A DNA stretch of 62,926 nt, the filler included, from Rhabdomonas costata (taxonomy: Eukaryota): assembly GCA_019059605.1 (NCBI GenBank). It is 21 parts of 21 records of this genome, joined end to end, with 100 filler letters (N's around TTAATTAATTAA, not from the genome) between each part and the next. Parts side by side here need not be neighbours in the genome. Positions count along the whole stretch, not along the records: positions 15,022 to 17,918 come from JAHMHO010001767.1; 20 more parts are not named here. One strand, given 5' to 3'. The notes under the pieces are model-generated. The model ran no database searches. It was given only the letters and a program-made list of their open reading frames with translations, and had not been told where the DNA came from. Positions 2,904 to 60,151 of this stretch are shown here, piece by piece. How positions within the stretch are numbered: the stretch's first letter is position 1; each line of letters opens with the position of its first letter. The position numbers and the translations under genes are program-made.

Positions 2904-3003
2904 NNNNNNNNNNNNNNNNNNNNNNNNNNNNNNNNNNNNNNNNNNNNTTAATTAATTAANNNNNNNNNNNNNNNNNNNNNNNNNNNNNNNNNNNNNNNNN
3001 NNN
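2904..3003. other. Artificial contig linker (N44-TTAATTAATTAA-N44), first of 20
   Basis: The identical 100-nt linker, with stops in all six frames, recurs at 5908, 8911, 11918, 14922, 17919, 20923, 23925, 26927, 29928, 32930, 35931, 38932, 41933, 44933, 47933, 50932, 53931, 56930 and 59930. It defines 21 contigs of ~2.9 kb. Confidence 0.99.
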
Positions 3004-3111
3004 GGGTTTTTGTTTTGCACAGAAGAAGTGTGCAAGTGCTGAAGAAGTGGAGAAAACTACCATTCCCCGGACTGAACAAAATTCGGTGCACACAAAGCAA
3101 GCATGGCAGAC

Positions 3112-4906
3112 CTGAAAGAGGTGGGTCAGCCCGTGGCCCACCAGCCCAGCGACGTAGTGGCAGTACAGCTCGTAATCCGCGATGGTCACGGCGGGCTCGG
3201 TCCGCGCGGCGTACTCTGCCATCCCCGCGCCCATCTTCTTCGCGATGTCCACGATGGGCTCCTGGAGCTTCGGATCGAGCTCCAAGAACGCCGTCACCAC
3301 GAGGTCGAAGTGCTCCAGCAAGTCCCGTTCGTCCGCATTGTCCTGGAATGCAGGCAGACGCAGGGTGGCAAGCTTCCTTAACGTGGGGTTTATCGGCTGC
3401 CGACTTAATTGTTTGGAGCCATGTTGACCAAGTGTTCTGGATGCGAGAGTCCAAGGCCAAAAGTTGCATCTGTTAAAGGAAGGAAGGAATGAAAGAAGGA
3501 AGTTAACGGGGTGCGCAAAACGGACGCAAAGCTCACGAGATGCGCAAGTCAAAGCGAACAGCGGGAATGCCCCTTTAAAACAGAACCTTCCCTGAAGCAC
3601 AAAATGAGCTCTCACTGTAATCTCTCCTATCCCTCTGCAGAAAAACGCGTTTGCGCAACGATATGTTCCGCGTTCGGTAAAAACCTGTCAAAAAGCAATT
3701 TTGCCTTCGCTGTCAAACGAAAGGCCTATTGAGAAGAAAAGCTTGCGCATACCCCGATTCCGGAAATCGACCAACCTCGCTGATAAAGCTTCTCGTGAAA
3801 GCTCTGTGAAACACACATTAATTAACAGGACCAATACCAACACGAAATGAATATTCTACCGACACAGATACACTCTGAATCATCCAGATCAAAATGCGGG
3901 ACTCGCTTGAAAGTATAAAACACAAAGGGCCAGACAGGGCTGCAAGACCGCGGACCGATACGGCATGCTCTATCTGCGCTAATAAACTTCATAAACCTCT
4001 AAAGGTGTATTTCCACTGCCCCTCGAACAGCCAATCACCTCTAAACCACAAAATTCCGTTCAAGCGAGGTGAAAATCGTAAGCGCGCGACTTGCGAAGAT
4101 GGCGTACGAGTGGGAGGCAGCGAAGAGATATCACTAAATTTGCTGATCGCTGCACGCAAAAAGGAAGTCGAATGAAAAGGTGGCGCGGGAGAGGAGATAC
4201 GATCAGCTCGGAGGTCTTGCGGTCCAACGACACGGACATGTCATCCTCAATCGTGTCCAGTCCACGGAGGACGAGGTAGAAGATGCACGTCGCGTCGCGC
4301 AGCTCCTCACCCAGCGCCATGATGACGGCCGCAAAGGAGCGGCTGACCTGCAACGAAAAAACAGACAGGTGTGTGCTGAGGCACTCCTTTTCCGGGAGGT
4401 TGGACTGTGACTTCACCCCTCATCAGGGGCGTGCTGACTCCGCACGGTTTTCAAGCCGAACCCCTGATGGAGCCCCCGACAGATAGTTGTTTTTGGGGGC
4501 GAGGGGGGGGGGCAGGGGTGAGCTCACGCCTTGGGTGGATGCCTTTATGCAAACAAATGGAAGCACACTACTTTCTGCGAAACACCCACCATCACTCCAG
4601 ACATAAAAAAAAAGCCGTTTCGAATTCATCAGGTTCTGTGGGGATGCGCAAGCCGAGGACCAATTACGGTGGAAAGGGAGTGGGGTAATATGTGCAAGTG
4701 CAACGCATACAAGTGCATCGTTTTTCCGGGAGGGGGAGAGTTGGGTCGACCTTCTGCAGTTTCTCGTAGCAATAGTCCAGGTGAGGGTTTTTGGCCTTTA
4801 CCGCCTTCTTCACCGCGCGCTGGCGCACCAACACCTGCATGATCGCCGAGGTGTCTGTGTACCACTGCCGCGCCACAGACACGGGGCTCCACAGGGCAGA
4901 CATCAT
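3112..4906 (-). CDS. SQS: Squalene synthase (farnesyl-diphosphate farnesyltransferase), 5' part
   Basis: Exons 4906-4751, 4347-4201, 3803-3753 and 3342-3112, all phase 0 GT-AG. They give [19 protein letters not shown]...[14 protein letters not shown]...|[26 protein letters not shown]...[14 protein letters not shown], the canonical SQS motifs. Truncated at the contig end. Confidence 0.95.
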
Positions 4907-6391
4907 CTTGTGTTCTGTTCCTCGGTGAGAATGGGCAGGAAATTCGGGGGGAGGGAGGGAGAGGAACGGCTCAAAGCGGCTCAACGGATTAAGCAGCTGA
5001 GGCGAGGGCACTCGACAGGACGAGAACCCGAAATATAACAGCGAGGAGGAAGAGAGGTGGTGGGATCACACACTGCGTGCAGAAAAATTAAGCCACTCTA
5101 AAGCCACTCTACTGGCGGGACACTAAAACCACTACAAAGCACCGCACGAACGAATGCGTGAGTGCGTGTGTGTGGGTGGGGGGGGATCAGTCCTCGACCA
5201 GCCCGATTGCCTTCCATTTGGGCAGCCAGTCGTACCATGTCAATATTCCCTGATCTCACGCTAATTTGTGGGAGATTTTTTTCCCGTGTTGATAGAGCTC
5301 ACATAATTGTCTCCAAGCACCCCACCGTTTCTCCATGTCAACCAAAACGTATTTGTTCCGCTGAGATACCATTGCCCATTTGCAGAGAGTTCGGAAATGA
5401 GGCATGCTGCGATCGGTCAGGGATCGTGGAAGGGAAGGGGGATGTGGCTGAATGCTGTGGCTATGGCCAGCCTGTGGCTGAAAATTGGCGAGCAGAAACT
5501 AATGGAAACGTGTGCCGCACTCCATCACATAAAATATATACCTATATTCGCTCAGGCATTGGTTCCTGGGTGGTTTCTTACCAGTTTTTATAGTTACCTA
5601 TCGCTAGCTTCCAATAATTGAAATTAGTAACGCCGTTGGCACCTCATGCACTATGCACTGGATCCAAGATGTCGGTGCCCCCCAATCTCCAACACCCCTT
5701 GCCCCGCGCGAATCACACACAAACAATGGTCTGCATTGTTCTGCAGGGTGTTCGGGACGACTTATTCTTGGAACGAAACTCACATGAGCTCTCAGGGCAC
5801 CGGGTCTCCCAGCTCCGCCATTCCTGGAAAGTTCGGAAACAACGTGAGCAATTACGACCTCAGCCAGGCACCCCTTCTCCCCACCCCCCCATCGGTGTAA
5901 CCCAACANNNNNNNNNNNNNNNNNNNNNNNNNNNNNNNNNNNNNNNNNNNNTTAATTAATTAANNNNNNNNNNNNNNNNNNNNNNNNNNNNNNNNNNNNN
6001 NNNNNNNGTTTGTGGGTGGATTTTCTGCATACCTTCAACTATTTAGCAGCGATCTAATGCTGGTCTGAGGTATTTCCTCTGTGATCTGAGATGGCCGCGA
6101 TGAAGGATACTGGGGCACATTCATGAAGAAACCTCATGACAGCCTCCGCAACCACGTCCCTGAGGGGGGGGGAAGCCCTTCTGTTTTATTGGGTGCGTGG
6201 GACAGCAATGAAACGAGCAATGAAACGAAGCAGCAGAAAATTTACAAAAGAAGGAGGAAAATACGGTGAACTCATGCACGACAAATAGGTTTCCTTTCGT
6301 GTGCTAAAGAGTACCCATCTTGGATGAAACGCTGTGGAACAGTTGTCGTTGGATTGGCCCCAAAATCGGGGTGTTTAGCGCTCAGAGTGAC

Positions 6392-9010: not shown

Positions 9011-11578
9011 GTTTTTGGTGATACTGATTCGCAATGGTGCAAGCCAGAGTTCCTTTTGGACTGGTCCAGCAATGGACTTGTCGACCTAAGAGGAACGTCA
9101 GTAAAACTCAGAAAATCCATTCTTCAGCACATGGGCTGCCTCTGTGATATCTTTGATAGGTTGAGTTCCCCTGCTTTGATTCCTCGGTTCATTCAATGCG
9201 CTCTTCAAGCTTCTCCACCATCAGAGGCCAACCTGCAATGGGTGTCGGCTCTTCTCGACTTCAATGCCCCATATGCCATCGTCGTGCACCCGAGATATCC
9301 TCCGACACGACCGGCACATTGGTGGGCACAGAAAACCTTGTGCTTCCAGCCTTTCGACGACGAGGAGCCTTTGCTGCGGAATGCGATTTTGCAACTTCGA
9401 GAGCACCCCCCTGAATCAAAACCCGTTTTCCTCGATTTTTCAAGCAACCATTTGAAGTTCTATCCATTGGGGTTTCGCACCATGGGCAACATTATGAGAT
9501 CGACCTGGCTCTTTTTGGCCAACCCAGACTCGTGTGATATCAACATCGCAGTGTCTGAAGGTGAACTCGTTTCAGAGTACGCAGCTTCGTATGCCACACA
9601 TCTCGCGAGTGTCAACGAAAGGCACGAGCTTATGATTTCTACCCTCAAACCATGGGCGAAAGGAGCCGACCAGTCACCTGAGTCCTGGAACGAAGAGCAA
9701 GAAGCCAGAGGGATTCTCACGGCGCGGCTCCGCCCACTGACAGAATGCCAGCCGTCTCTGGACTGCATGCCTTTGGTAAAGCCCATGTACATTACAGGCC
9801 CTCCAGGGTCAGGAAAGACCCACCTTTTGCTTGAACTTGCTCGGACTCTCCATCTCTCGGCTCCTCATCTCAATTGGGAGATTTCAAGCCTTGCGGCATT
9901 GAGGGCGTCAAAACTTGGTGGGGTCCACTTTCACCTGCTCTTCGGATTCAGGCCTGACAAAAATCGCCGCCCCACAGCAGCTTCTATGGCAAGCTCCGCC
10001 ATGCGCCATCTGGCACATCATCCCGTTTTGCGCCGGTATCTTCTCGAACTTCACGTACTTTTTTTCGATGAATGGGCACAGTTGGGTTCCATCTCCGTCG
10101 CAGCCATGGACTTGCTGCTGAGGAAAATCCGCGGCAACGATAAGCTTTTCGGAGGCCTTTGTGTCATAGCAGCAGGAGATCATTACCAAAATGAGCCCAT
10201 TGACGAGCCATCACCACTCCAGTCCTGGCTTATGATCTATAACTTTAACACAATCTGCCTCACCACCATGTACCGTTCGCGCCTGGATGCCATGCTTCAG
10301 TTCATCATTATGCAAATTCGGAAGCCTCAGATCCCGGAGATTGTCGTTTCGCAAATCCTTTCCATCGTTACCACTCATTGCCAGATGGTGGGAGGACCTG
10401 CTGCAGTTCCCTCGGATTCCACTTGGCTGCTTCCGACTCACGCCGCAGTGGTCGGTGCCAGAGAGGCACGTTTTTCTGCGTCCACTGAAGCCAAGAAGCT
10501 GTTTCAGGCGGAGGACTTTATCCTGCACGCGGGGACATGGAAACGAACCCTTGACACGCGCTACACTGCCCTCCTCAACCGTCAAACTGCGCTTCTCCCC
10601 GTGGTGCACGTAGTCGTGGGCGACAGAATGCAATTCACACAAAACACAATCATCAACAAAAAACTCCATGCGAACGGGTCCTCGGCAGTTGTACACGACG
10701 TCACTGAGAACTCCGTCACACTGAAGCTTCACGATGACTCCCAAGCTTCCGTCAGCAGGGCTGCAGCCAAGGTATTGCTGCTTTTAAAATCGGCTTTTCT
10801 AGTTTCGTTTACATATCCCTTCTCTGCTCTTTTCTCCCACTCTCTACCCTAGGTTTCAATGAGTCGCCGAGGCATGCTTCAGCTCAAGCGGGAACAGATT
10901 CCCTTGGAGCTGGCCTGCGCCACAACCGTGCACGACAGCCAAGGAGACACCTGCCCTTCAATAGCGACTTCCGCCAATGACAACTGGGAGAACAGGATGT
11001 GGTCCCGACAAATGTTATTTACGCTCCTTACGAGAGTCGAACGGCTGAACCACATCACTTTCGTTGGGTTTAATTCCGACAACATTGCCGCGCTGCTAAG
11101 GCTGACTACTTACTGGCATGGGGATGCTGACGCCTGGTGTCAAAAGGTAAACCTGTTGAAAAACGCCTACACCCAGGTGATTCCCTTGCCGGTTCCTGAA
11201 CCATTCTACGACCACGGTTTGCAAGCCCTTCCTCGTGCTGGAATAAACGCGGCCTATATTTTGGAAAGTGAGTCAACCAAGGCCTGCTATCCAGGGAGCA
11301 CGGACAACGTACTCCGCCGCCTTACTGAACACAACAGCAAACGAGGAGCCGTGATCACTGCGTGGGTTCAGGACTGGAAAGTCAAAGCCTGTGTTCTTGG
11401 ATTTCCCTCGGGGTTGTTAGGAAGGGCAAATGCTCGTGCATTTGAGCTCAAGCTCCTACGCTCTCCCGTTGTGCCGCACCTGCCGCTATTTGAGTGGATC
11501 CGTCTGACGCATTTGCTCGTGACACAACACAACGCGGACACCTCACTTTCTCCTTTATGGGTGCAGACCTTTCTCTGA
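9011..11578 (+). CDS. Pif1-family (SF1B) DNA helicase fused to a C-terminal SLX1-like GIY-YIG endonuclease; 5'-truncated; candidate mobile-element protein
   Basis: Open from the contig start. One 81-nt GT-AG intron (10772-10852, carrying the in-frame TAG) joins the 598-aa and 239-aa ORFs. Helicase motifs: GPPGSGKT, LGGVHFHLLF, FFDEW, FGGLCVIAAGDHYQ, LTTMYRS, REQIPLELACATTVHDSQGDT, LFTLLTRV. Nuclease motifs at ~11250-11460: AAYILES..CYPGSTDNVLRRLTEHNSKRGAVIT..W..GF..ARAFE. Confidence 0.9.
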
Positions 11579-13985: not shown

Positions 13986-15863
13986 TCCAGTTGGAAACCA
14001 ACAGGTTGTGACAAAAGAGAGAACCAGCCAGCAGAAGGCTGTCGGGGAGAATACAAGGCCAAACGCAACAAGAATTCTCACTACTCCATATTCAGGACAA
14101 CTTTTGCATTCAGGGAAGTGGCGCTGGCACTTTTAAAAGATCCCCAAAACCCAAGCAACCCTGTAATTTTAGTGGTAAGTTAATTGCAAGGATAACAGGA
14201 GCAAACACAGAGGACCTAAAAAAAGCTTAGCATGTGAGTGACAAAGCTCGATTTGAAAAGTGCAGTTCTTCAGACAATAAATCCCCAGCTTGAGGCCCCC
14301 TCTTCCCGGTTGGTTCAATGTTGGTTTTTGTGGGAGATTGGGTGCACCGTTTTGCAGCAACATCGACGACTTGGGGGAAGGCGGGATGTCGGTGCCTTGT
14401 TCAGAGACCGCGAAAAAGTCCAAACATGGCTTTCAGGGGAGGCGAAAGGGCCAATCTCAAGGAAAAACTTTTTGGCCCAAAATAGTCCCAAAAATGAAGC
14501 AGCGCTCAAGTACTGCGAGTGGGAGTGAGTACTGCGAGTGGGGACGCAGAGAAAATAATTAGGGGTAAATCACTTATCACGGGATCTTGGGGATGAAGAA
14601 ACCAAGATTAAGCGAATAGTAGTTGTTTGCAAAAGCAGCATTTTGGCCCGAAACATCTCGTTCAACACGTCGGCAGCCTCCTGTCTGACAGTTAATTACG
14701 ACCAACGTGCATGGGCAAATGTGACGAAGCGAAAGATGCCCACCCACATAACTAGCCGGAAGCTTAGAGGAGGGCTGGCCACGCGACGCTTCCGTTACCC
14801 GGGGTTAACCCTCTTTCTCCATACCCTCAGCGCAGAAGAAAACATAATACACTGGCGCGAGTTGATGCACCAAGTAGCGGTTGCTGCCCACACAGCCATC
14901 ACCCCACTTGGAAAAACCACCNNNNNNNNNNNNNNNNNNNNNNNNNNNNNNNNNNNNNNNNNNNNTTAATTAATTAANNNNNNNNNNNNNNNNNNNNNNN
15001 NNNNNNNNNNNNNNNNNNNNNTTGTGTGGGGGACAAGTGATGGGTGAGCAGTTGCAGCTCTCTCTCGCCGGCCGGCTGCTCCCCGTCTCTGTCTGCCTTT
15101 CCTCCATCCCTTGAAAGCCGCACTCCTCATTGGTTAAGAAAACCGCAATGGGACCGCTCTTAGGCCTTTGCTGCTCTTTCAGATTCTAAGTTTGTATTAT
15201 TGTCTCCTACTTCTCTCGCATCCATACGGTGCGAGCGATACTTGTGAGACACACGATTTTTTCTCTCCGGTGTTTCTTTTTGGTTCTGTTTCAGCTATTC
15301 CAAAGTCCACGGGGCACTTTGTGTGTCGCCTCCTGTGTTTCTCAGCTGAACGACTTTTTTACCTCAACAGAAGTCGGAGGCGTTGTTGTTTCGGACGTGT
15401 TGTGAAATTATGATCACGAGCCTGTGCCGCATTATCAAAAAAGAGGGTGGATAGTGGGAATCTTATGTATTTGAGTCTGCTCGGTTTCAAATAAGCAAAA
15501 ACAAAAACATGGTAGTTTTTTTTTTCGATTTCCGGGATGTCTTCCTTACCGAAGTGCTGTGTTAGTTGATCGAGGCTCTTGATGTGGACGGTGGTTGCGG
15601 CAACCCGGACCATGTTAAGAGCAGCTGGGAGTTCGGTAAACATCCCTAGCCTTCTTAAATAGGTGAATTTTTGCATAAGAACGCTCGAGGTATAGGGCTG
15701 TGATTCCAAGTTGATTTTATTTTGGATGGGAAAATTCCGCTTTGGAGGCCAGTCCTGGGTATTTCCGGCGCCGCAGATTGCTGAGGCAAACTCAGGTGAA
15801 GTTCATCCTTCACTTGTGCGGCAACGTTGCGGATTTCTTTTCTTCTTTACAGTCTATGCTCGC

Positions 15864-17918
15864 ATGATGCCCAGTGACCCGGTACCCAGCGATGAGCAGC
15901 ATTCGGATGGTCAGAAGCCCTCAGGTATTCTGAAACGTGGTTTTGGTTCTTTTTCTTTTCGTATTTTTTCATTACGCGTTTGTATTTTTTGTATTGCTTT
16001 GTTTTCCTATAGGTAAGAGGTCTCACCGAAGACCAAGAAAAGGCAAGAGCACCTCTTCCTCTGGCGCACCTGCCAACAAACCTCCCCCTGATACAAGTGC
16101 TGAAGACCGCGACCCAATCGTAGCCGCGGTGTCCTCCTCTGACCGCAAAGAAGTTTCCACCGACGACACGCGTTACTTTATCGTCAAGGCCCCCATGGAG
16201 AACTTCAACCTCAGCCTGAACGCCGGCCTGTGGGCAACCCAGGTCAACGCTCAGGACCGCCTGAGCTCCGCATATGAGGCTGCCAGCCGGGTCATTCTCC
16301 TGTTCTCGCCCATCCACACGAACCGTGTGCGGGGGTTTGGGGTGATGTCCTCTTTGCCTGATCCCGCGCTCTCCGTTGCATGGAGAAATGTCTCTCAGGT
16401 CTCCCTCGGCGCCTGCTTCCGTGTGCGCTGGCAGGGTCTGGGTGAGGCTGTGTTCAGTCGAAGGCCCCTTTACGACTGCCAGGAGCTCTCGAAGGAGGAC
16501 GGCCACCGCCTGTGTACACAGCTCAACAAGCCAGCTCCCCAGCCAAAAGCTGACCAGCCATCCGCTCGGTCTTCCTCCCCGGCGTCTGGCCCGCAGCAGC
16601 AGAAGCCCGCCAAGAAGAAAGCTTCCCAAGGTTCCTCGCAGCAGCGCCAGCCCGCACCAGTTGCTCCCACCCCAGCTGAAGAAGAAAAGTCCTCCCAGAT
16701 TAAGATCCGCCGTCGGTACGTACCAAAGCCCTCCGCAGGACAAGAGCCGGATTCCGAAGCGAGATCTGCTCCTGCCGCCCCGTCTTCTTCCGCTGCACAG
16801 CTGTCGACTGAGACCCATGACCCTCATGCCCAAACCCAGAAAAAGAGCATTCCTACCCGCTACTTTGTTGTAAAGGCACCAGAGCAGAATTTGTTCATTT
16901 CCCTGGAGTGCGAGCTGTGGATGACAAAAAGGGAGAACCAAGCCACACTATCCAAGGCCTTTGGAGAAGGTCGGGTCATCCTCCTGTTTTCTCCTATCCA
17001 CACCACCCAATTCCGTGGGTTCTGTCGGATGCAGTCCTTGCCTTCGCCTACCCTTGCGTCCTATTGGAAATCTTCCCTCACTCCTATGCTTGGAGACTGC
17101 TTTGAAGTCAGCTGGTTCTGCGTGTGCGACTTCACCCCCATCGGATATCCCAATCCATGGAATCACAACAAGCTTGTGACCGTCTGCGGGGACTGTCAAG
17201 AGATCCCTCCCGAGATGGGGCACGAGCTGTGCCAGATGATGTGGGAAAAAGGTGATATATTGCGCCCTCGCCAGCAGCCATCGGCTGATCCTTCTTCCTC
17301 CCTTCCTCAGGACGCCGCCATTCAGGCGATGGGAATGCCGCACCCGATGACACAGACTTCCTCTGCCCAGGGCTATCACTCTCCTCAAGTCAGCAGCCCC
17401 GGGAACGAAAACCGACCCCTTCCTACCCGTTATTTTGTTGTTCGAGCCCCTCAGGAAAACATGAACGTGTCATTGCAGACTGGTCTATGGGCTACACAGA
17501 GAGCAAACGAAGACAAGCTATTTGGAGCCTTTCGAGAAGCCAACGTGCTGCTGCTCTTCAATGCCACGCACACCCGAATGTTTCAGGGCTTTTGCAGCGT
17601 CTCGTCCTATCCCAATCCTGCGTTGCATGCCCAGTGGAAATGTCCCGCACACGTTCAGCTGGGCGCAAACTTCCAGGTTTGTTGGGAGATTGTTGCCGAC
17701 GTCGATCTGGGGAATTGCACGTTCTACGATTGCCAAGAGCTTTCGCCCCAGGATGGCTTTGATTGGTGCCAGGAAATGTCTCGCAACGCTCATTGGAGAG
17801 GATCCGACCAGACGCCACCGCCTTTTCACCACTACTCCAACCCTCACTCTGCCCCATTGCACCAGCATCATCACCAGCACGAGCCCGCCTACCCCGAAGC
17901 AGATGTACCCCACCCACC
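15864..17918 (+). CDS. Protein with three tandem YTH (m6A-reader) domains, 3'-truncated
   Basis: Exon 15864-15924, intron 15925-16012, then one long exon to the contig end. Three repeats begin TRYF(I/V)V(K/R)AP at 16168, 16855 and 17425. Each has N..S...LW.T, LLF(S/N)....F.GF..(M/V).S, W...LG..F.V.W and DCQE(L/I)...G..(L/W)C, the YTHDC-type signature. Confidence 0.92.
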
Positions 17919-19939
17919 NNNNNNNNNNNNNNNNNNNNNNNNNNNNNNNNNNNNNNNNNNNNTTAATTAATTAANNNNNNNNNNNNNNNNNNNNNNNNNN
18001 NNNNNNNNNNNNNNNNNNGTTGTTGTGTTCTGTTCTGTTCTGTTCTGTTCTTTTCATTTCGATGCATTTGTTAGGGCAATGCTGTGCCGCCTTGTTTCGG
18101 ATAATCCCTTCCTTGTTCTTTTTTTCAGGGAACATTAATTCGGATATTCGACCTTCAGGTCACCCCCCCAACTTTGATAAAAGAGGTTCCTCTTTCTTGC
18201 ACTACTTTGTTACCATGCTGAATCGTCACGCAATTCCGTCATCAATTCTTTTGTTGACGCCCCTGTGTCGCCAGCTCTGAGGCCTTGCCTGCATTGCTGC
18301 CGTGCCATGCTACAAAACAAATCCGTTTCTTTGGGTTTAGCTGATAAAACCCAATTATAAAAGCGTTGATATGTAAAAATTCAGTAACTCGGAACTATTT
18401 TTTAGTCCTTTTGTAGGGAATTTAGTACACCATGTCCTCTCCTAGCTCGCTGGTGCAGCCTCCAGGAGGACTCAAAGATCGGCCAAACTCATGCAAAATG
18501 CCCATAAACCACAGGGGGAGATCAGGGCAGGGGGTGATTGACCCCCGCTTCGCCCAAGTCCACTCTTACCAAACCTTAATAATATCAAGAAACAGGGACG
18601 GCTCCCCCTGCGCGTCCGGTGTTTGCTTTTGTGGTTTGCTATTTACAAGGTAAGTTACACCCGGAAACTCAGAAAATGGTATGTGACGGTTTTTTATTCG
18701 AAGTCTTTTCAGCCTGTAGAAATGCCGCTGTCTGGGGACATGTCATGTGATGAACCCGGACAGTTTTCAACCAAAAAGGCAGTTAGATATGGGATGCTGC
18801 GAAAAGACTACTGCGCCGAAGGCACGATTTTTTCCATGTAATACCGTGATTGTATTGATCTTTTGAAGCGAATTGTCAATTCTCTAACCGGCTGTGTGAT
18901 GAGAAGGTAGGTAAAGAAAGGGTTTAAAACAGCCATGTGGTATGGTGCAGTTCTGAGTTTTCGGTGTAACGTACTTTACATAAATTTTACGTGACGAAGG
19001 CTTGCGGGGGTGCGCCGTCCCGATGCTACTATCGGCACCCCGTTTGTGCGGGCATGCCTTGTTACTCTCATGTGGTGAAATATATATGAAAAATCTAAAA
19101 TTTTGGGAAAACGGCACAGAAGACGATCAAGAAGAAGCGCAGAGGACATCTAAAATGATGTCCACATGTCTCAAAGTGGGGATTTTTGACAATTTACCAA
19201 GCAGCAAGGCACCGAAATAAAAGGGGAACAGGCCCCTTTCAGTTCAATTATAACTTTTCCTTTTATTTGGTGGTCAAGTCCAAAAAGGTCCCTTAATATC
19301 AACCGTTCTGAATTCAGCAGTGAAGCGCAGAAACATCGCCAAGAAAGCGTAAAGAGCGTACAAGCAGGCCCTGGGTCTTTTGTATGTACAGTGGGCCTCC
19401 CGAAACCCACGGCCTCAGCTTGAATACTATGACATGAAGCCCGGAAAACACAGCACGGGGTAAAAAAGAGCTCAATGTTTCCTTTGCAGATTACGGAACA
19501 GCTCCTTTAGTTGAAATTTCATTTACACAATTCGTGCTCACACTCAAAATTGATTTTACCTTTTGAGTAAGGTGGTATCCCTTCATCAGATTCAAATAAG
19601 GTAAAGACCAAGTTAGCGTTGTTCTTGAAACTTATTTAGTGGTAGAACAAGATTTGCTGATTTAAAATTTTCTTGTAAGTTTTGGTATCACGCACGGCTC
19701 TAAATAAGGTATTGATGACGCCTTATTCAACTTATCGGGAAAGGGTGCATACATTCCGGATCCCTCAAATCTCGAAGTTTAACAAATGAAAATAGTACGA
19801 CGTGAGTGTTGCGAAATTATCACCGCCACCGTAACAGCAACGCTGGGATAGGATTCACCATAGAACACCACAGCCGAATCTCAGGCACAATGAGGGGAGG
19901 AAGCGAATGCCGTACATCCGTTGCTGACGGGCATAAAGT

Positions 19940-33030: not shown

Positions 33031-33823
33031 GTTGTTGTTACAAACGCCGATGTGAAGTACTCCGCTGACGCATCCTGGGCCAGCAATCTCGTCTCCAGCC
33101 TTGCGCCCTACAAGCAGATCGTCAGCTATGTCTGTATCGGCAATGAGGTGAACAAGGCCCCTGAAGCGTATCCCTACGTGGCAGCAAGCATTAATGCCAT
33201 CGGAAGTGCTCTCTCCTCCGGCGGTTTTGCAGCCAAGCCGATCACCACTTTCACCACTGAAGTTGTGTCGGGTTTCCCGCCATCGGCTGGAAAGCTGGTC
33301 CCGGACAACACCTTCCTGGGCATCCTCGCGGCACTCTCCGCGCAGGGCTCCCCTATCTTTGTGAATATCTACCCTTACTTCACGTTTATGGACTCCCTGA
33401 GCTGGCCTCATCCCATCGATCTGTCGTACGCGCTGGGCACCGCGAAATATCCAGTAGTTAGTGACAGGGGCCATGACTACACGGCCCTCTTTGACGCCCA
33501 GTTTGACACGGTTGTGTACGCGCTACGTGATGGGGGGTACAACAACATGCAGCTGGTGGTTGGGGAATGCGGGTGGCCCACTGCAGGGGACACGCAGGGC
33601 TACGCCAGCGTAGCCAACGCACAGGTCTTTGTCAATCTGATGGCCGAGAAGGTTACCAAGGGCACCCCCCTTGCCCCTGGGAAGTACACTCTGTATCTGT
33701 TCGAGGCTTTCGACGAGCCGAAGAAGGGTCCTGCGCCAGTGGAGCCTCACTTCGGAGTTTGGGATCACGCTGGGTCCCCAAAGTACCCGATGAACTGGCA
33801 CTCCACACATCTGAGCTCTTCTG
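33031..33823 (+). CDS. GH17 endo-1,3-beta-glucanase catalytic exon, 5'-truncated
   Basis: YVCIGNEV (acid/base Glu), FPPSAG, GSPIFVNIYPYF, YTALFDAQFD, VVGECGWPTAG (nucleophile Glu), GTPL, YLFEAFDE and EPHFGV..PKY, i.e. plant-type GH17. A probable splice donor lies at 33824. Confidence 0.95.
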
Positions 33824-33962
33824 GTTGCTTTGCCAATTTTATTCTCCTTGTGCATCTCTTAATTGGAGGTATTATTCCCTTTTGTATTGATTCGGAACAC
33901 TCTGGAAAGTGGAGTGGAGCTGGGCTTATTTCTGAATGTAATTGCCACCGGCAACACTCCTA

Positions 33963-34020
33963 TACTATTCTATCCAGTCCTATTCTATCCTATCCTGTCC
34001 TACCCTATCCTATCCTGTCC
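33963..34020 (+). repeat. Degenerate (ATCCT)n pentanucleotide microsatellite
   Basis: ctattctatccagtcctattctatcctatcctgtcctaccctatcctatcctgtcc, inside the probable intron after the GH17 exon. Confidence 0.8.
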
Positions 34021-37009
34021 TTGCTGCAACCGCTGGTGTCTACCTTTCTAATTTGTTCTTCGCAGCCCCGGAACTTGCGGTGGAGCTATTCTCAGAGCCT
34101 CGCTCACCTGCGGAGTCAGGGCTGGGGATGGGACACCGCCTTCTTCTTCGGGGAATTCCTGTGACAATGCCCAGTGTGGCTTTGAAGGTAGTGTGTAAAA
34201 TTCAGCATTTACGGGCGGGCGTTTACAACCGCTTATTTTCCAGGTTTCAGGTTTCAAGTTTCATCGCCAGATGGACGGGGGGTGGGGGTAAAGTCAGCCT
34301 CTTTTTTTTTTCGCATCTTTTTGTTCGTGCTGAATTTAGATGATTAAAATTTATTCTGAGTTTCTTACACTTTCTTCTTTCGCACCTTTTCAGGTGAGGC
34401 TTTCCTTGGTGATGTGCCCAACGGTGTGCTTGTTTCCCCTGCCTCTGCTTTGCGATGACGTTGTTATCCTCATTCACTGCGATGAGTATTCCATTCGCTC
34501 ATCCCCCTGTACTGTGTGGCCATGTTTGGCCCATGCTTGATCCCAGGTGATCCATTCAGGTGTTTTTGGCAGAATGCAGGGATTGTGTCTCGGAGTGTGC
34601 GGTGGCTCACAGCTTACCGCGGAGAATCTGCGCTCCATAGTCGCCCCGCACCGCGACCTCAGCCTGGTCTCCTTCAGCATGCTGGAGTGCCCGGTGCTGG
34701 AGCTGCGCTGTAGGGGTATGCAAAGGCTGCGTGTAAAAGGATGCAGAATTCTTGAGGTGACCTTGGGCGGGTGCTCATCCTCTGCCACGCAAGTTCACAA
34801 TCACAACCGAAAGGCCGTTACAGTTAATGTCAATGAGAATAAGTTAAGAAATTACGAAGTCCTCGGGGAGTGAGTTACAACTGAGAAAGTTTTTAGTTGT
34901 GCGCGGTGATTTCTTGTCGGGTTGAGGGAAAGGGGGTGGGGGGTTATTACACATCCCGGCAGAACGTTTCTGGCCGGTGTTCCATTGTAACCATCAACTT
35001 AACCCGCTACCATATTTTCAGTGATAAGTATACTCAACACTAACCAACACATTTTTGGGAAGCTCGTGGTTTGCTGATGTTGGTAGCTTCAAGGCAATTG
35101 AAGGAAACTGATTATTTTGACGTGCATCTTTCATCTGAGGTATGGCTACTTGATGTTGTGTTGAAATTCATTTTTTGTGATGAAACGCGCCTAATCTCCT
35201 ACAGGCTCGACTCCAGCCGCCGCGAAGGATGTCTGCAGTGCGCTTGGTGCGGACCTCCTCCTCCCGACCTCCAACCTGTACAAGCTGCTGCTCCGTTCCT
35301 TCGCGTCAGACTCCCTCCTCACTGTCGCAGCTCCCTGAGCGGCGCAATATGTAACGCAGAGTGGAAGAGGCATCTTACGCCTCTCAGACACCCATTGCGT
35401 CCTTTCCTCTGACCCCCCCTCTCCTTCTCTCTCGCTCTCTCTCTCTCCAGGGCAGCACACCCTGTGCTTGAAATCTCCACCACAGCAGCACACCTTTGCT
35501 CTGCTCTGCTGCACAGCTGCACTCAACTGCTGCTGATACATAAGACATCGATCACGTTTTCAGTGGAAATGACCTGTCGTTTCCCGTTTCCATCCATCAT
35601 CCACTTCTTGTTCTGTTTGTTTCAATTTCTCTGCTCTCTTACGACAATGCACCGCAGTCTTGGGGATTTGTGGCTTGTGTCAGCATTATCAACCCAGTAA
35701 TGTGAACTCCATCGCAATTGGCTGAACTGGGTGCAGTTGTCCAATGTGAAGGCAAATCTTTGAACTTCTGTTTTTGATTTCATTCGCTCCGGGATGCAAA
35801 AGGAAGTGATTTGGCACCTCCAAGGACTGTTTTCACCTAGACTTCCCCGTGTTACAGCTCGAGGCTCTTAGCGGTGTCCCCGCTAACGACCGGCCCCCGA
35901 AGAAGCTTGGAACGGCGAAAATGTACCCAANNNNNNNNNNNNNNNNNNNNNNNNNNNNNNNNNNNNNNNNNNNNTTAATTAATTAANNNNNNNNNNNNNN
36001 NNNNNNNNNNNNNNNNNNNNNNNNNNNNNNGGAGGGGGGGGGGGGGGCTGCCAGCTTCGGCCGGGCAACACCGTGGTGACGTACACCGAGATGGTGTACG
36101 GATGCCGTGCCGAGATGGAGTTCCCTGTCACGGTGCGGTGAGGTCTGCTGAGGGTGTGGCTGGGACGGAAGGTGTCTGCAGCCTGTGCGATGTTTCGCCC
36201 CACCACGGGGGCGGTTTTCCAACAGTGGTGGCTCCCTCGGATCGTTTTCTTTTCTGCAGATATTGTGAAGGCCTCAACCCCTGTGCGCAGGGCGCACACC
36301 GAAGTGTAAATTGTGTAACGTTACAATAGAAAAATGAATCATCGGGTTGGGGAAAGGGAGACAGGGAATGGGGGAGCGATTCGGGTGAGTTTGCCGGTCA
36401 CGGAAAGCCGTATTTCCGGAGAACAGCTGGAAAACCAGTGATTCATAATAACAAACCGTAAGCAAACTCCTTCACCATCGCATGTGAACATGTGAACACC
36501 CCCCTCCCCGTCGCTCCACAGTTTTCTTCTACAATTCTTTTCCGATGCTAGAGCGGAATTGGAAAACAGCATTTTGCTGAGGGAAGTAGGCGATGCACGT
36601 GCCCCCATGTGATTTCCAGGATGTTTTGGGGGCCGCTCTGCTGCGTTCGGCGGCCCAAAAAACCCCAGATGCTTTCTCGGGACAGGGGAGGGGGGATCCG
36701 CAAAAAAGTATAATGTCAATTGAGTACTTGGGCAGACGCCGCACTGCGGTCGGGTGGTTGCCCACCGTTTTTCTAGAGCCATTCATCTCTGGGCGCCAGC
36801 GGGGCTTGTGGGGGGTATTTTCCGGGTTTTCTGGGAATGCACAGGGGTGTTGCGGCTTTCCTTCGCCTTGTGGCAGCGCCCGTGTTTGCTGTACTATCCC
36901 CAGCCTGTTCACTGCGTGAGTTTTTCAGTCCCTCGCTGTATTGCTTTGTGTGTATGTGAAGTGCGTCTACGTCCGTCTGATAAACGCACAAAATTTCTCT
37001 GTGAAAGAG

Positions 37010-59929: not shown

Positions 59930-60151
59930 NNNNNNNNNNNNNNNNNNNNNNNNNNNNNNNNNNNNNNNNNNNNTTAATTAATTAANNNNNNNNNNNNNNN
60001 NNNNNNNNNNNNNNNNNNNNNNNNNNNNNTGTTTTGGTTGCCAGAGTTTCTCCTTGGATTTCCTGTGATGTACGACTTGTTGGCCCCTTCCTTGGCGTTG
60101 GTTTCCATGTAACTTGAATATCGGGCTTGATAGAATCGCCCATATGTCTCA

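Follow-up and report, generated by a model that had tools for sequence, protein, structure and literature searches.

We found that a gene of the euglenid Rhabdomonas costata encodes a protein with at least three YTH domains in a single chain. Since other euglenids share this layout, the triple-YTH design is real and conserved. Judged from its sequence, the protein is probably a nuclear, multivalent reader of clustered m6A, a reading that we place modestly above even.

Gene structure and expression

The window, that is, the whole 62,926-nt stretch of DNA analysed, consists of 21 unrelated pieces of ~2.9 kb joined by 20 spacers (laid out as N44-TTAATTAATTAA-N44), so that gene neighbourhood cannot be read from it; the triple-YTH gene lies on the piece at 15022-17918, and the pieces to either side do not border it in the genome. 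A stop-free frame is open from 15934 and reaches the N spacer at 17919 without a stop codon, and the C-terminus of the protein is thus missing. The single ORF holding three domains that was reported in a preliminary description of this DNA was therefore recovered, but three is a minimum, as the C-terminus is cut off. The 678-codon open frame is not due to chance: by our own estimate, the probability of a chance origin at roughly 50% G+C is about 1e-14, and the Pfam E-values of the YTH matches range from 1e-16 to 1e-25.

The first in-frame ATG after the upstream stop is residue 62, inside domain 1. Exon 2 thus offers no in-frame start ahead of domain 1, and the start codon must lie in an upstream exon. 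A candidate splice that would fit the phase is present upstream, made up of ATG at 15864, GT at 15925, and an AG at 16011-16012 that follows a pyrimidine tract. The junction of the putative exon 1 with exon 2 restores the frame (G + GT = Gly), the frame of the putative exon 1 also appears in the list of ORFs for the stretch, and conventional GT/AG introns are among the features reported for R. costata (PMC8219788). The elements of the gene are as follows.

15864..15924, + strand: putative exon 1, opening with ATG ATG; 20 codons (MMPSDPVPSDEQHSDGQKPS) and 1 base, the G of a codon completed beyond the intron
15925..16012, + strand: putative intron, 88 nt, GT-AG, phase 1, the AG following an extended pyrimidine tract
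16013..17918, + strand: exon 2, unbroken coding sequence of at least 1906 nt that reaches the edge of the contig piece without meeting a stop codon
17919..18018, no strand: spacer (Ns, TTAATTAATTAA, Ns), outside the gene, at the junction with an unrelated piece

The whole YTH array sits in a single exon of at least 1906 nt, as had been proposed. The contrast that had been made with the 'short exons of most genes here' had to be dropped, because the remaining pieces of the stretch are unlinked contigs, from which no such comparison of exon length can be drawn. A tblastn search of the 20 other pieces with five family proteins revealed no further YTH-like stretch (best E 0.46 and 0.85), and nothing was found in Rfam and tRNA scans of the whole stretch. 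A 366-codon open frame on the minus strand (15847-16947) gave no Pfam match above noise and was taken as a by-product of coding-strand composition.

No sign of expression of this copy was found in a 1.84-billion-protein library, in which the best match was 38% identical overall and no listed match to the window's protein exceeded 52% identity. The lack of a near-identical protein, though for another piece of the stretch the parent collection includes a transcript-derived protein at 99% identity, would fit a silent or decaying copy, e.g. a retrocopy, in which the intron-free 1.9-kb exon stems from reverse-transcribed mRNA and the locus is unused. The array without an intron points the same way, as do gene-call fragments of relatives (P0016, P0150, P0035 and P0068) from long contigs in other genomes, which stop inside domains, as if at introns. 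We nevertheless regard such an origin as very improbable, given a frame intact over at least 1906 nt, pocket residues that are all kept, three domains predicted to fold with high confidence, and a plausible spliced 5′ exon, for which a retrocopy has no need. Absence from the R. costata transcriptome is weak evidence, because this transcriptome is fragmentary, with a median transcript of 430 nt and 43.5% of reads mapping to the assembly (PMC8219788). The family itself is expressed, since its members P0002 and P0159 (described below) are both transcripts.

Three YTH domains in one chain

The Pfam profile PF04146 matched three stretches of the 636-residue translation, with a total of 195.3 bits. 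When the translation was divided into five parts and each was scanned alone against Pfam, domains 1, 2 and 3 scored 59.8, 89.4 and 58.7 bits, respectively, each exceeding the PF04146 cut-off of 22.1 bits, while the two linker parts gave no Pfam match. The three profile matches anticipated in the preliminary description were thus obtained for three separate domains, arranged as listed below.

16013..16161, + strand: basic disordered N-terminal region; pI 10.5; contains KRSHRRPRKGK; pLDDT 40-49
16162..16545, + strand: YTH domain 1 of the short (S) type, NPWN loop missing; Pfam 59.8 bits
Pocket sites of domain 1, + strand: N at 16204-16206 (frame count); LWATQ at 16228-16242 (W); AWRN at 16378-16389 (W); SLGA at 16402-16413 (L); DCQE at 16474-16485 (D)
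16546..16845, + strand: linker 1, 100 residues; pI 10.1; basic patches KPAKKKAS and KIRRRYVPKP; pLDDT 41-47
16846..17271, + strand: YTH domain 2, long (L) type, full length; Pfam 89.4 bits; NPWN at 17152-17163; pLDDT 83-98
17272..17418, + strand: linker 2, 49 residues, acidic to neutral; pLDDT 36-53; scanned over 17281-17400, no Pfam match
17419..17796, + strand: YTH domain 3, likewise of the short (S) type and carrying the domain 1 deletion; Pfam 58.7 bits; pLDDT 90-96
17797..17918, + strand: tail rich in His and Pro (9 of each in 40 residues), open at the end of the piece; pLDDT 34-57

Most details of the first description were borne out. The domain starts given earlier (16168, 16855 and 17425) are exactly the three TRYF motifs, and the quoted motifs are in place (LWATQ/LWMTK/LWATQ, AWRN/YWKS/QWKC and SLG/MLG/QLG). 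The linkers described as S/P/Q-rich consist of S, P, Q and A to 60% (linker 1) and 59% (linker 2), the tail described as His-rich has 9 His in 40 residues, and the basic N-terminus (pI 10.5) does contain KRSHRRPRKGK, a stretch that appears to resemble a nuclear localisation signal.

Alignment also upheld the claim that NPWN is present in domain 2 alone. Domain 2 covers positions 1-134 of the 135 in the PF04146 profile, whereas domains 1 and 3 align to positions 1-97 only, owing to the loop deletion. The same 11 residues of domain 2 are deleted from domains 1 and 3, a loss that takes out the NPWN loop and is also found in relatives from Euglena and MMETSP. Domain 3 is 44% identical to domain 1.

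The AlphaFold check suggested earlier returned three confidently folded blocks with disordered linkers between them. In the full-length AlphaFold2 model, globular blocks span residues 51-178, 279-420 and 470-595 (pLDDT about 90-98) and are accompanied by four disordered segments; the full-length pTM of 0.41 means that no fixed packing between domains is predicted. Modelled alone, domain 1 reached a pLDDT of 91.7 and a pTM of 0.84. When this model was compared with the PDB by Foldseek, the top matches were all YTH domains or proteins (query-normalised TM 0.73-0.79), including the YTH domains of YTHDC1, Toxoplasma CPSF4 and Arabidopsis CPSF30 (0.75-0.79). Domains 2 and 3 have the same order of strands and helices as domain 1 in the full-length model. 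The models thus indicate that the separate folding of the three YTH domains is real, and the short type shows that the predicted fold persists without the NPWN loop.

YTH subtype

Sequence comparison with PDB chains assigns the domains to the YTHDC/CPSF30 kind and not to the YTHDF kind. The best solved match is CPSF4 of Toxoplasma (7ng2; E = 1.1e-18 for domain 2 and 7e-14 for domain 1), followed by CPSF30-L of Arabidopsis (5zuu; 4.1e-18 and 4.8e-11, respectively). Domain 2 matched YTHDC2 at 5.5e-17 and YTHDC1 at about 1e-13, versus about 5e-5 to 4e-4 for YTHDF chains (YTHDF2 5e-5). Among the 21 PDB-chain matches of domain 1 at E up to 0.01 there was no YTHDF chain. The third cage residue, at the position of YTHDC1 L439, is Leu in all three domains; YTHDF-type YTH domains carry Trp at this position.

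The protein nevertheless differs from each of these systems. With YTHDC1, the human nuclear m6A reader, it shares the fold of the domain 1 model, the pocket residues in all three domains, Leu as the third cage residue, and disordered regions that flank the YTH, but it has three YTH domains where YTHDC1 has one. It also departs from YTHDC1 in that R475 and K472 are lost from all three domains and the loop bearing N466 (NPWN) is absent in domains 1 and 3. CPSF30-L and CPSF4 combine CCCH zinc fingers with one YTH, in contrast to the three YTH copies of the window's protein, in whose 636 residues no zf-CCCH was detected at E up to 1; several single-YTH library matches do carry zf-CCCH. Ala at the S378 position is common to domains 1 and 3 and the 5zuu and 7ng2 chains. 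YTHDF proteins, with a single C-terminal YTH and a long low-complexity region, likewise join a methyl reader to disordered regions, and they prefer multiply methylated RNA through multivalency. In their case, however, multivalency comes from many molecules per RNA, whereas the window's protein would build it into one chain.

Methyl-adenine pocket and 3′ grip

Residues were numbered as in YTHDC1 through alignment of the domains to YTHDC1 chains, with residue roles taken from PMC7544203. According to this source, W377, W428 and L439 of YTHDC1 form the hydrophobic cage for the methyl group, the polar contacts to adenine include the N367 side chain (to N1) and the T379/D476 water site, and K361, N466, K472 and R475 provide a basic grip on the 3′ nucleotide and phosphates (PMC7544203). 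In our alignment, equivalents of N367, W377, T379, W428, L439 and D476 are kept in all three domains, in agreement with the earlier claim of cage-equivalent N367, W377, W428 and L439 in every domain. All three domains thus appear to retain a complete N6-methyladenine pocket. At the S378 position, domains 1 and 3 have Ala and domain 2 has Met. Across the 14 domain copies of the family, counting those that cover each position, W377 and W428 are invariant (13/13 each), L439 is found in 11/13 (the exceptions being one M and one Q), D476 in 11/13 (two E) and N367 in 10/13.

The basic grip of the YTHDC type (K361, N466, K472, R475) is, as a whole, not found in the window's domains. The K361 position is kept (K, K and R in domains 1, 2 and 3, respectively) and N466 is kept in domain 2, one of the three. 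The R475 position, however, reads Y, G and Y, and the K472 position is absent, T and absent, so that neither residue is kept in any domain.

With the 3′-nucleotide contacts of YTHDC1 lost, the RNA may follow another path than in YTHDC1, and the loss would suit a methylation-independent binder of the Mmi1 kind, in which the YTHs read a short unmethylated motif on another face and the copies read clustered motifs. A kept cage is no proof of methyl reading: Mmi1, a YTH protein, is described as binding the DSR motif and not m6A (10.1101/171827). Mmi1 is among the matches of domain 1 both by structure (6fpp) and by sequence (5o8m, E 0.0078). We consider this mode of binding unlikely for the triple-YTH protein. 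Mmi1 is a far weaker match than the closest solved relatives, which are m6A-binding YTHs (TgCPSF4, AtCPSF30, YTHDC1/2), and the retention of six pocket positions in all three domains, mostly across the family, would be difficult to account for unless the pocket were under selection.

A conserved euglenid family

The protein does not stand alone: it is one of a conserved euglenid family in which at least two array types occur, and a protein with two YTH domains was also found in an unrelated protist lineage. Regarding the proposed search for multi-YTH architectures, the layout is not unique, as relatives are present in libraries, and our literature search found no paper describing such proteins. 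Multi-YTH proteins account for 6 of the best 150 of 779 library matches.

The short-long-short array, with three Pfam stretches in each case, occurs in Euglena gracilis EG_transcript_9322 (P0002, 534 aa) and in the MMETSP transcript P0159. A second array type, short-long-long′, is represented by P0010 (ENA contig), and EG_transcript_7800 (P0011) shows long-long′ only. All the euglenid YTH copies group in a single clade (ultrafast bootstrap 97 / SH-aLRT 95), within which the S, L and L′ types fall, and the clade has an SH-aLRT of 94 in a tree with 45 single-domain outgroups. With at least two YTH domains per chain and a place in this clade, the window's protein is a member of the euglenid multi-YTH family.

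P0002 is 41% identical to the window's protein in the family alignment, lies in the same clade and has the same array order, with domains 1 and 3 carrying the same deletion and domain 2 the NPWN loop. Its sequence opens with domain 1 itself and stops about 10 residues past domain 3. Unlike the window's domains, which are intact at these positions, P0002 has V at N367 and M at L439 in domain 2, and S at N367 in domain 3. In the P0010/P0011 type, which falls in the same family clade, the L domain groups with domain 2 of the window's protein in the L type (94/98), and the last domain, L′, is full length and keeps an N-x-W-N loop and the R475 equivalent. The two short domains of the window's protein pair weakly with each other (68/51), and the tree does not resolve the positional orthology of domains 1 and 3 with Euglena domains 1 and 3.

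Since P0010 joins a short domain of the domain 3 kind to long-long′, and the frame in the window runs past domain 3, we considered a five-domain protein, short-long-short-long-long′, as the general form. As a general form this is unlikely, because one long-contig genome carries pieces of the two types on separate contigs, of 430,608 nt and 111,121 nt. Five YTH copies were found in no library match; P0063, with five phmmer stretches, has no Pfam YTH match. Searches of metagenome contigs with the family and short-type alignments gave 220 and 58 pattern matches, respectively, of which tblastn confirmed none. A word-indexed search with the family alignment returned two proteins, P0002 and P0012, and is uninformative on distribution, as it missed the known members P0010 and P0159.

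Proposed mechanism

We infer m6A binding, weak single sites, avidity and a nuclear location for the triple-YTH protein. It is a beads-on-a-string protein of three independently folded YTH domains, short-long-short, with disordered linkers between them. Each domain alone would bind a flipped-out m6A weakly, and the three together, assisted by basic disordered regions (the N-terminal region and linker 1), would gain avidity for RNAs with two or three close m6A. The protein would act in the nucleus, like YTHDC1 and CPSF30-type YTH proteins, both of which work there. Multivalent reading, which may reasonably be deduced, is made more plausible by the loss of R475 and K472 everywhere and of N466 in domains 1 and 3. 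The loss of R475 and K472 could, however, mean poor RNA binding instead of a tuned weak site. The preliminary description had named poly(A) tails or spliced-leader caps as targets; nothing in our analysis points there, and we regard these targets as speculation.

The methylated substrate could instead be DNA. The window's domains are of the DC type, and for the YTH of YTHDC1 the reported binding to N6mA is about 5 times stronger in single-stranded DNA than in RNA (PMC7544203); in Euglena gracilis, 6mA is reported downstream of transcription starts in a subset of genes (preprint 10.64898/2026.05.21.726589). A reader of N6-methyladenine in single-stranded or transiently unpaired DNA might thus link 6mA-marked gene starts to factors. 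We think this improbable, a little more so than binding of the Mmi1 kind: Pfam gave no DNA-binding or chromatin domain in the seen part of the protein. Furthermore, DC-type YTH proteins with known roles act, to our knowledge, on RNA. Reading of clustered m6A in RNA remains our preferred function for the triple-YTH protein.

Implications

The multi-YTH array appears to be a so far undescribed multi-reader design, a variant on known YTH readers. In every studied YTH reader that we know of, multivalency on multiply methylated RNA comes from many molecules gathered per RNA. A three-pocket chain with a weakened grip would lend itself to testing how avidity and the spacing of m6A determine reader choice, and would supply a ready-made scaffold for m6A-cluster detection tools.

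The family also raises the question of adenine methylation in euglenids, for which our literature search found no paper on an MT-A70 writer or on m6A in mRNA. In kinetoplastids, the sisters of euglenids, the METTL3-METTL14 writer is reported as lost, and the same comparative study reports that patterns of YTH loss parallel those of writer loss (PMC8868631). As a tentative and rather doubtful extension of our results, euglenids (at least Rhabdomonas-like osmotrophs and Euglenophyceae) may read adenine methylation by built-in multivalent arrays of two old types and not by single-YTH readers. The short type would then be a new minimal YTH, without the NPWN loop and the basic grip, which would bind m6A in a setting unlike that of studied YTHs, such as closely spaced or terminal methyl-adenosines or 6mA in single-stranded DNA, and the window's protein may carry domains past the third.

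Three YTH domains in a single exon

The frame under study had been proposed to hold three YTH domains. Indeed, the Pfam YTH profile (PF04146) matched three stretches of the 636-residue translation (195.3 bits), and when the translation was scanned as five separate parts, domains 1, 2 and 3 scored 59.8, 89.4 and 58.7 bits, each above the cut-off (22.1 bits); neither of the linker parts, scanned alone against Pfam, gave a match. The domain starts proposed in the preliminary description fall on the three TRYF motifs, and all the motifs that it quoted are present in the translation. Domain 2 spans profile positions 1-134 of 135, and for domains 1 and 3 the alignment covers no more than positions 1-97. 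Relative to domain 2, domains 1 and 3 have a common 11-residue deletion (14-15 alignment columns against canonical YTH domains) that takes out the NPWN-bearing loop; the absence of this loop had been noted previously.

The elements of the locus are as follows.

15864 onwards (+): ATG opening 20 codons plus 1 base, then GT at 15925
to 16012 (+): long pyrimidine tract, then AG
16013-17918 (+): exon 2, with all three YTH domains
15847-16947 (-): antisense stop-free frame of 366 codons, no family match

Exon 2 offers no in-frame ATG until residue 62, by which point the first strand-helix unit of domain 1 has already begun, and none was found in its frame upstream of 16012. Joining the exon that begins at 15864 to exon 2 restores the frame; we infer an 88-nt intron between them. 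The array had been described as lying within one exon of about 1.9 kb, and this holds, the exon being at least 1906 nt long. The antisense frame is probably a by-product of coding-strand composition.

We found TTAATTAATTAA 20 times in the window, about 3 kb apart and each time between N runs, as a spacer of the form N44-TTAATTAATTAA-N44 (2904-3003, 5908-6007 and on, through 59930-60029). The window therefore consists of 21 pieces of about 2.9 kb, whose lengths slowly fall along it. The YTH gene is on the piece 15022-17918. Because the adjoining pieces are contigs with no linkage to it, the gene has no neighbourhood that could be interpreted, and readings built on gene neighbours across a spacer are invalid. 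No stop codon interrupts the coding frame before it reaches the spacer at 17919, and the window therefore lacks the C-terminal end of the protein. Frames on other pieces were:

3004-3687 (-): at a piece start, squalene/phytoene synthase match (44.6 bits)
9011-11578 (+): a pair of neighbouring long frames, both on the same piece, with weak matches, PIF1-like/AAA helicase (28.8 bits), then UvrD-like C-terminal and GIY-YIG nuclease domains (29.2 bits)
33031-34161 (+): glycosyl hydrolase family 17 (GH17) frame (135.6 bits), 99% identical to EukProt RCo029748

Judging by these matches, the helicase-nuclease pair might belong to a mobile element, and the GH17 frame is plausibly a paramylon-degrading glucanase. 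Proteins of Rhabdomonas costata carry the RCo prefix in PMC8219788; together with the Euglena gracilis relatives of the YTH protein, the GH17 identity suggests that the source organism is a euglenid, most likely R. costata or a close relative.

Fold and binding residues

The model of domain 1 (68 homologues) had a mean pLDDT of 91.7 and a pTM of 0.84, and Foldseek matched it best, within the PDB, to the YTH domains of YTHDC1, Toxoplasma CPSF4 and Arabidopsis CPSF30 (query-normalised TM 0.75-0.79). In the full-length model (73 rows), residues 51-178, 279-420 and 470-595 form confident blocks, with pLDDT of 90-98 in most ten-residue bins, and pLDDT is below 50 in the N-terminal 50 residues, both linkers and the tail. 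The pTM of this model is 0.41, and the relative placement of the domains is therefore not predicted to be fixed. As modelled, the short YTH type, which lacks the NPWN loop, retains six strands and three long helices, its loss being limited to the short helical turns of that loop.

Residues were numbered as in YTHDC1 by aligning domain 1 to YTHDC1 chains with HMMER; this numbering is consistent with every residue named in sections 12-14 of PMC7544203.

Table. YTHDC1 residues, their roles (from those parts of PMC7544203) and the equivalents in domains 1/2/3
Trp377, Trp428, Leu439: methylated-base cage; W/W/W, W/W/W, L/L/L
Asn367: adenine N1 bond; N/N/N
Thr379, Asp476: trapped-water holders; T/T/T, D/D/D
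Lys361: phosphate binding; K/K/R
Arg475: next-base stacking and phosphate binding; Y/G/Y
Asn466: next-base contact; absent/N/absent
Lys472: phosphate binding; absent/T/absent

By alignment, the residues of the m6A pocket are intact and the grip appears weakened in all three domains. This combination suggests that single YTH sites would be weak and that the array would bind by avidity.

Relatives and origin of the array

Searched exhaustively with HMMER, 1.84 billion representatives yielded 779 matches at E ≤0.001, five of them below 1e-30. The closest relatives are Euglena gracilis transcripts; no near-identical copy was found in either library searched. Using the three domains of the window as the basis of a profile, we counted YTH copies and found more than one in 6 of the best 150 of the 779 matches (library proteins P0002, P0010, P0011, P0012, P0013 and P0014). 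A Pfam recount, which covered 31 of the 32 proteins with at least two phmmer stretches, plus P0002 on its own, concurred for P0002, with three stretches, and for P0010, P0011, P0013 and P0014, with two each; every other scanned protein came out as single-domain.

Table. Euglenid-type arrays (long and long', full-length YTH types)
P0002: E. gracilis EG_transcript_9322; short-long-short
P0159: MMETSP transcript; short-long-short, three Pfam stretches, cut in the third domain
P0010: from a 2.1-kb contig; short (N-terminally cut), long, long'
P0011: E. gracilis EG_transcript_7800; long-long'

In other assemblies, both array types also occur as gene-call fragments, on two separate long contigs (430,608 and 111,121 nt).

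In a tree of 22 domain copies, all 14 euglenid copies form one clade (ultrafast bootstrap/SH-aLRT 97/95), made up of the long' (99/95), long (94/98) and short (80/90) types. Domain 2 of the window is of the long type, outside both Euglena long subgroups, and the pairing of domains 1 and 3 is weakly supported (68/51). The single euglenid clade argues for internal duplication within euglenids as the origin of the array.

The contig fragments, from euglenid-like genomes, are P0016 and P0150 (on the longer contig) and P0035 and P0068 (on the shorter). In all four, YTH homology turns into unrelated residues mid-domain, the pattern that introns inside domains would give; in contrast, the window's array has no intron over 1.9 kb. 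P0032, from the deep-branching phagotrophic euglenid Ploeotia vitrea (EukProt), has a single YTH domain and a C-terminal region of about 250 residues without a Pfam match, and groups with the multi-YTH clade in a larger tree. P0013/P0161 (MMETSP and JGI) and P0014 (JGI) represent a Q/N-rich protist family unrelated to the window's array; the two YTH domains in these proteins are canonical and full-length (308 bits for the pair) and arose by a separate tandem duplication of their own.

Function

The best-supported reading, from sequence and models, is that the array would read clustered N6-methyladenine in RNA in a multivalent manner. Because its domains are DC-type and accompanied by basic NLS-like patches, the protein is probably nuclear. 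Methyl-independent binding, as by Mmi1, is a rival explanation, as is a silent gene copy. Another rival is reading of 6mA in single-stranded DNA: YTHDC1 prefers such DNA fivefold, according to PMC7544203, and 6mA has been reported at Euglena gene starts. According to section 3.1.1 of PMC8868631, METTL3-METTL14 was lost in kinetoplastids, and YTH losses parallel writer losses. The literature searches turned up no work on m6A or m6A readers in euglenids, and PMC7052976 does not mention YTH or m6A terms. Of the preliminary description, the observation of three YTH domains stands and the interpretation as a multivalent reader is supported in part; its proposal of poly(A) tails or spliced-leader caps as targets is not, as nothing observed points to either.

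We found no description of several YTH copies in one chain; the literature matches, among them PMC7544203 and 10.1101/171827, treat paralogues or mutants in the parts available, and supplementary tables may list domain counts. The array is a conserved, lineage-specific multi-YTH arrangement, one of its YTH types being trimmed; public data contain it, and it is undescribed as far as the literature was searched. Its design is unusual and easily testable.
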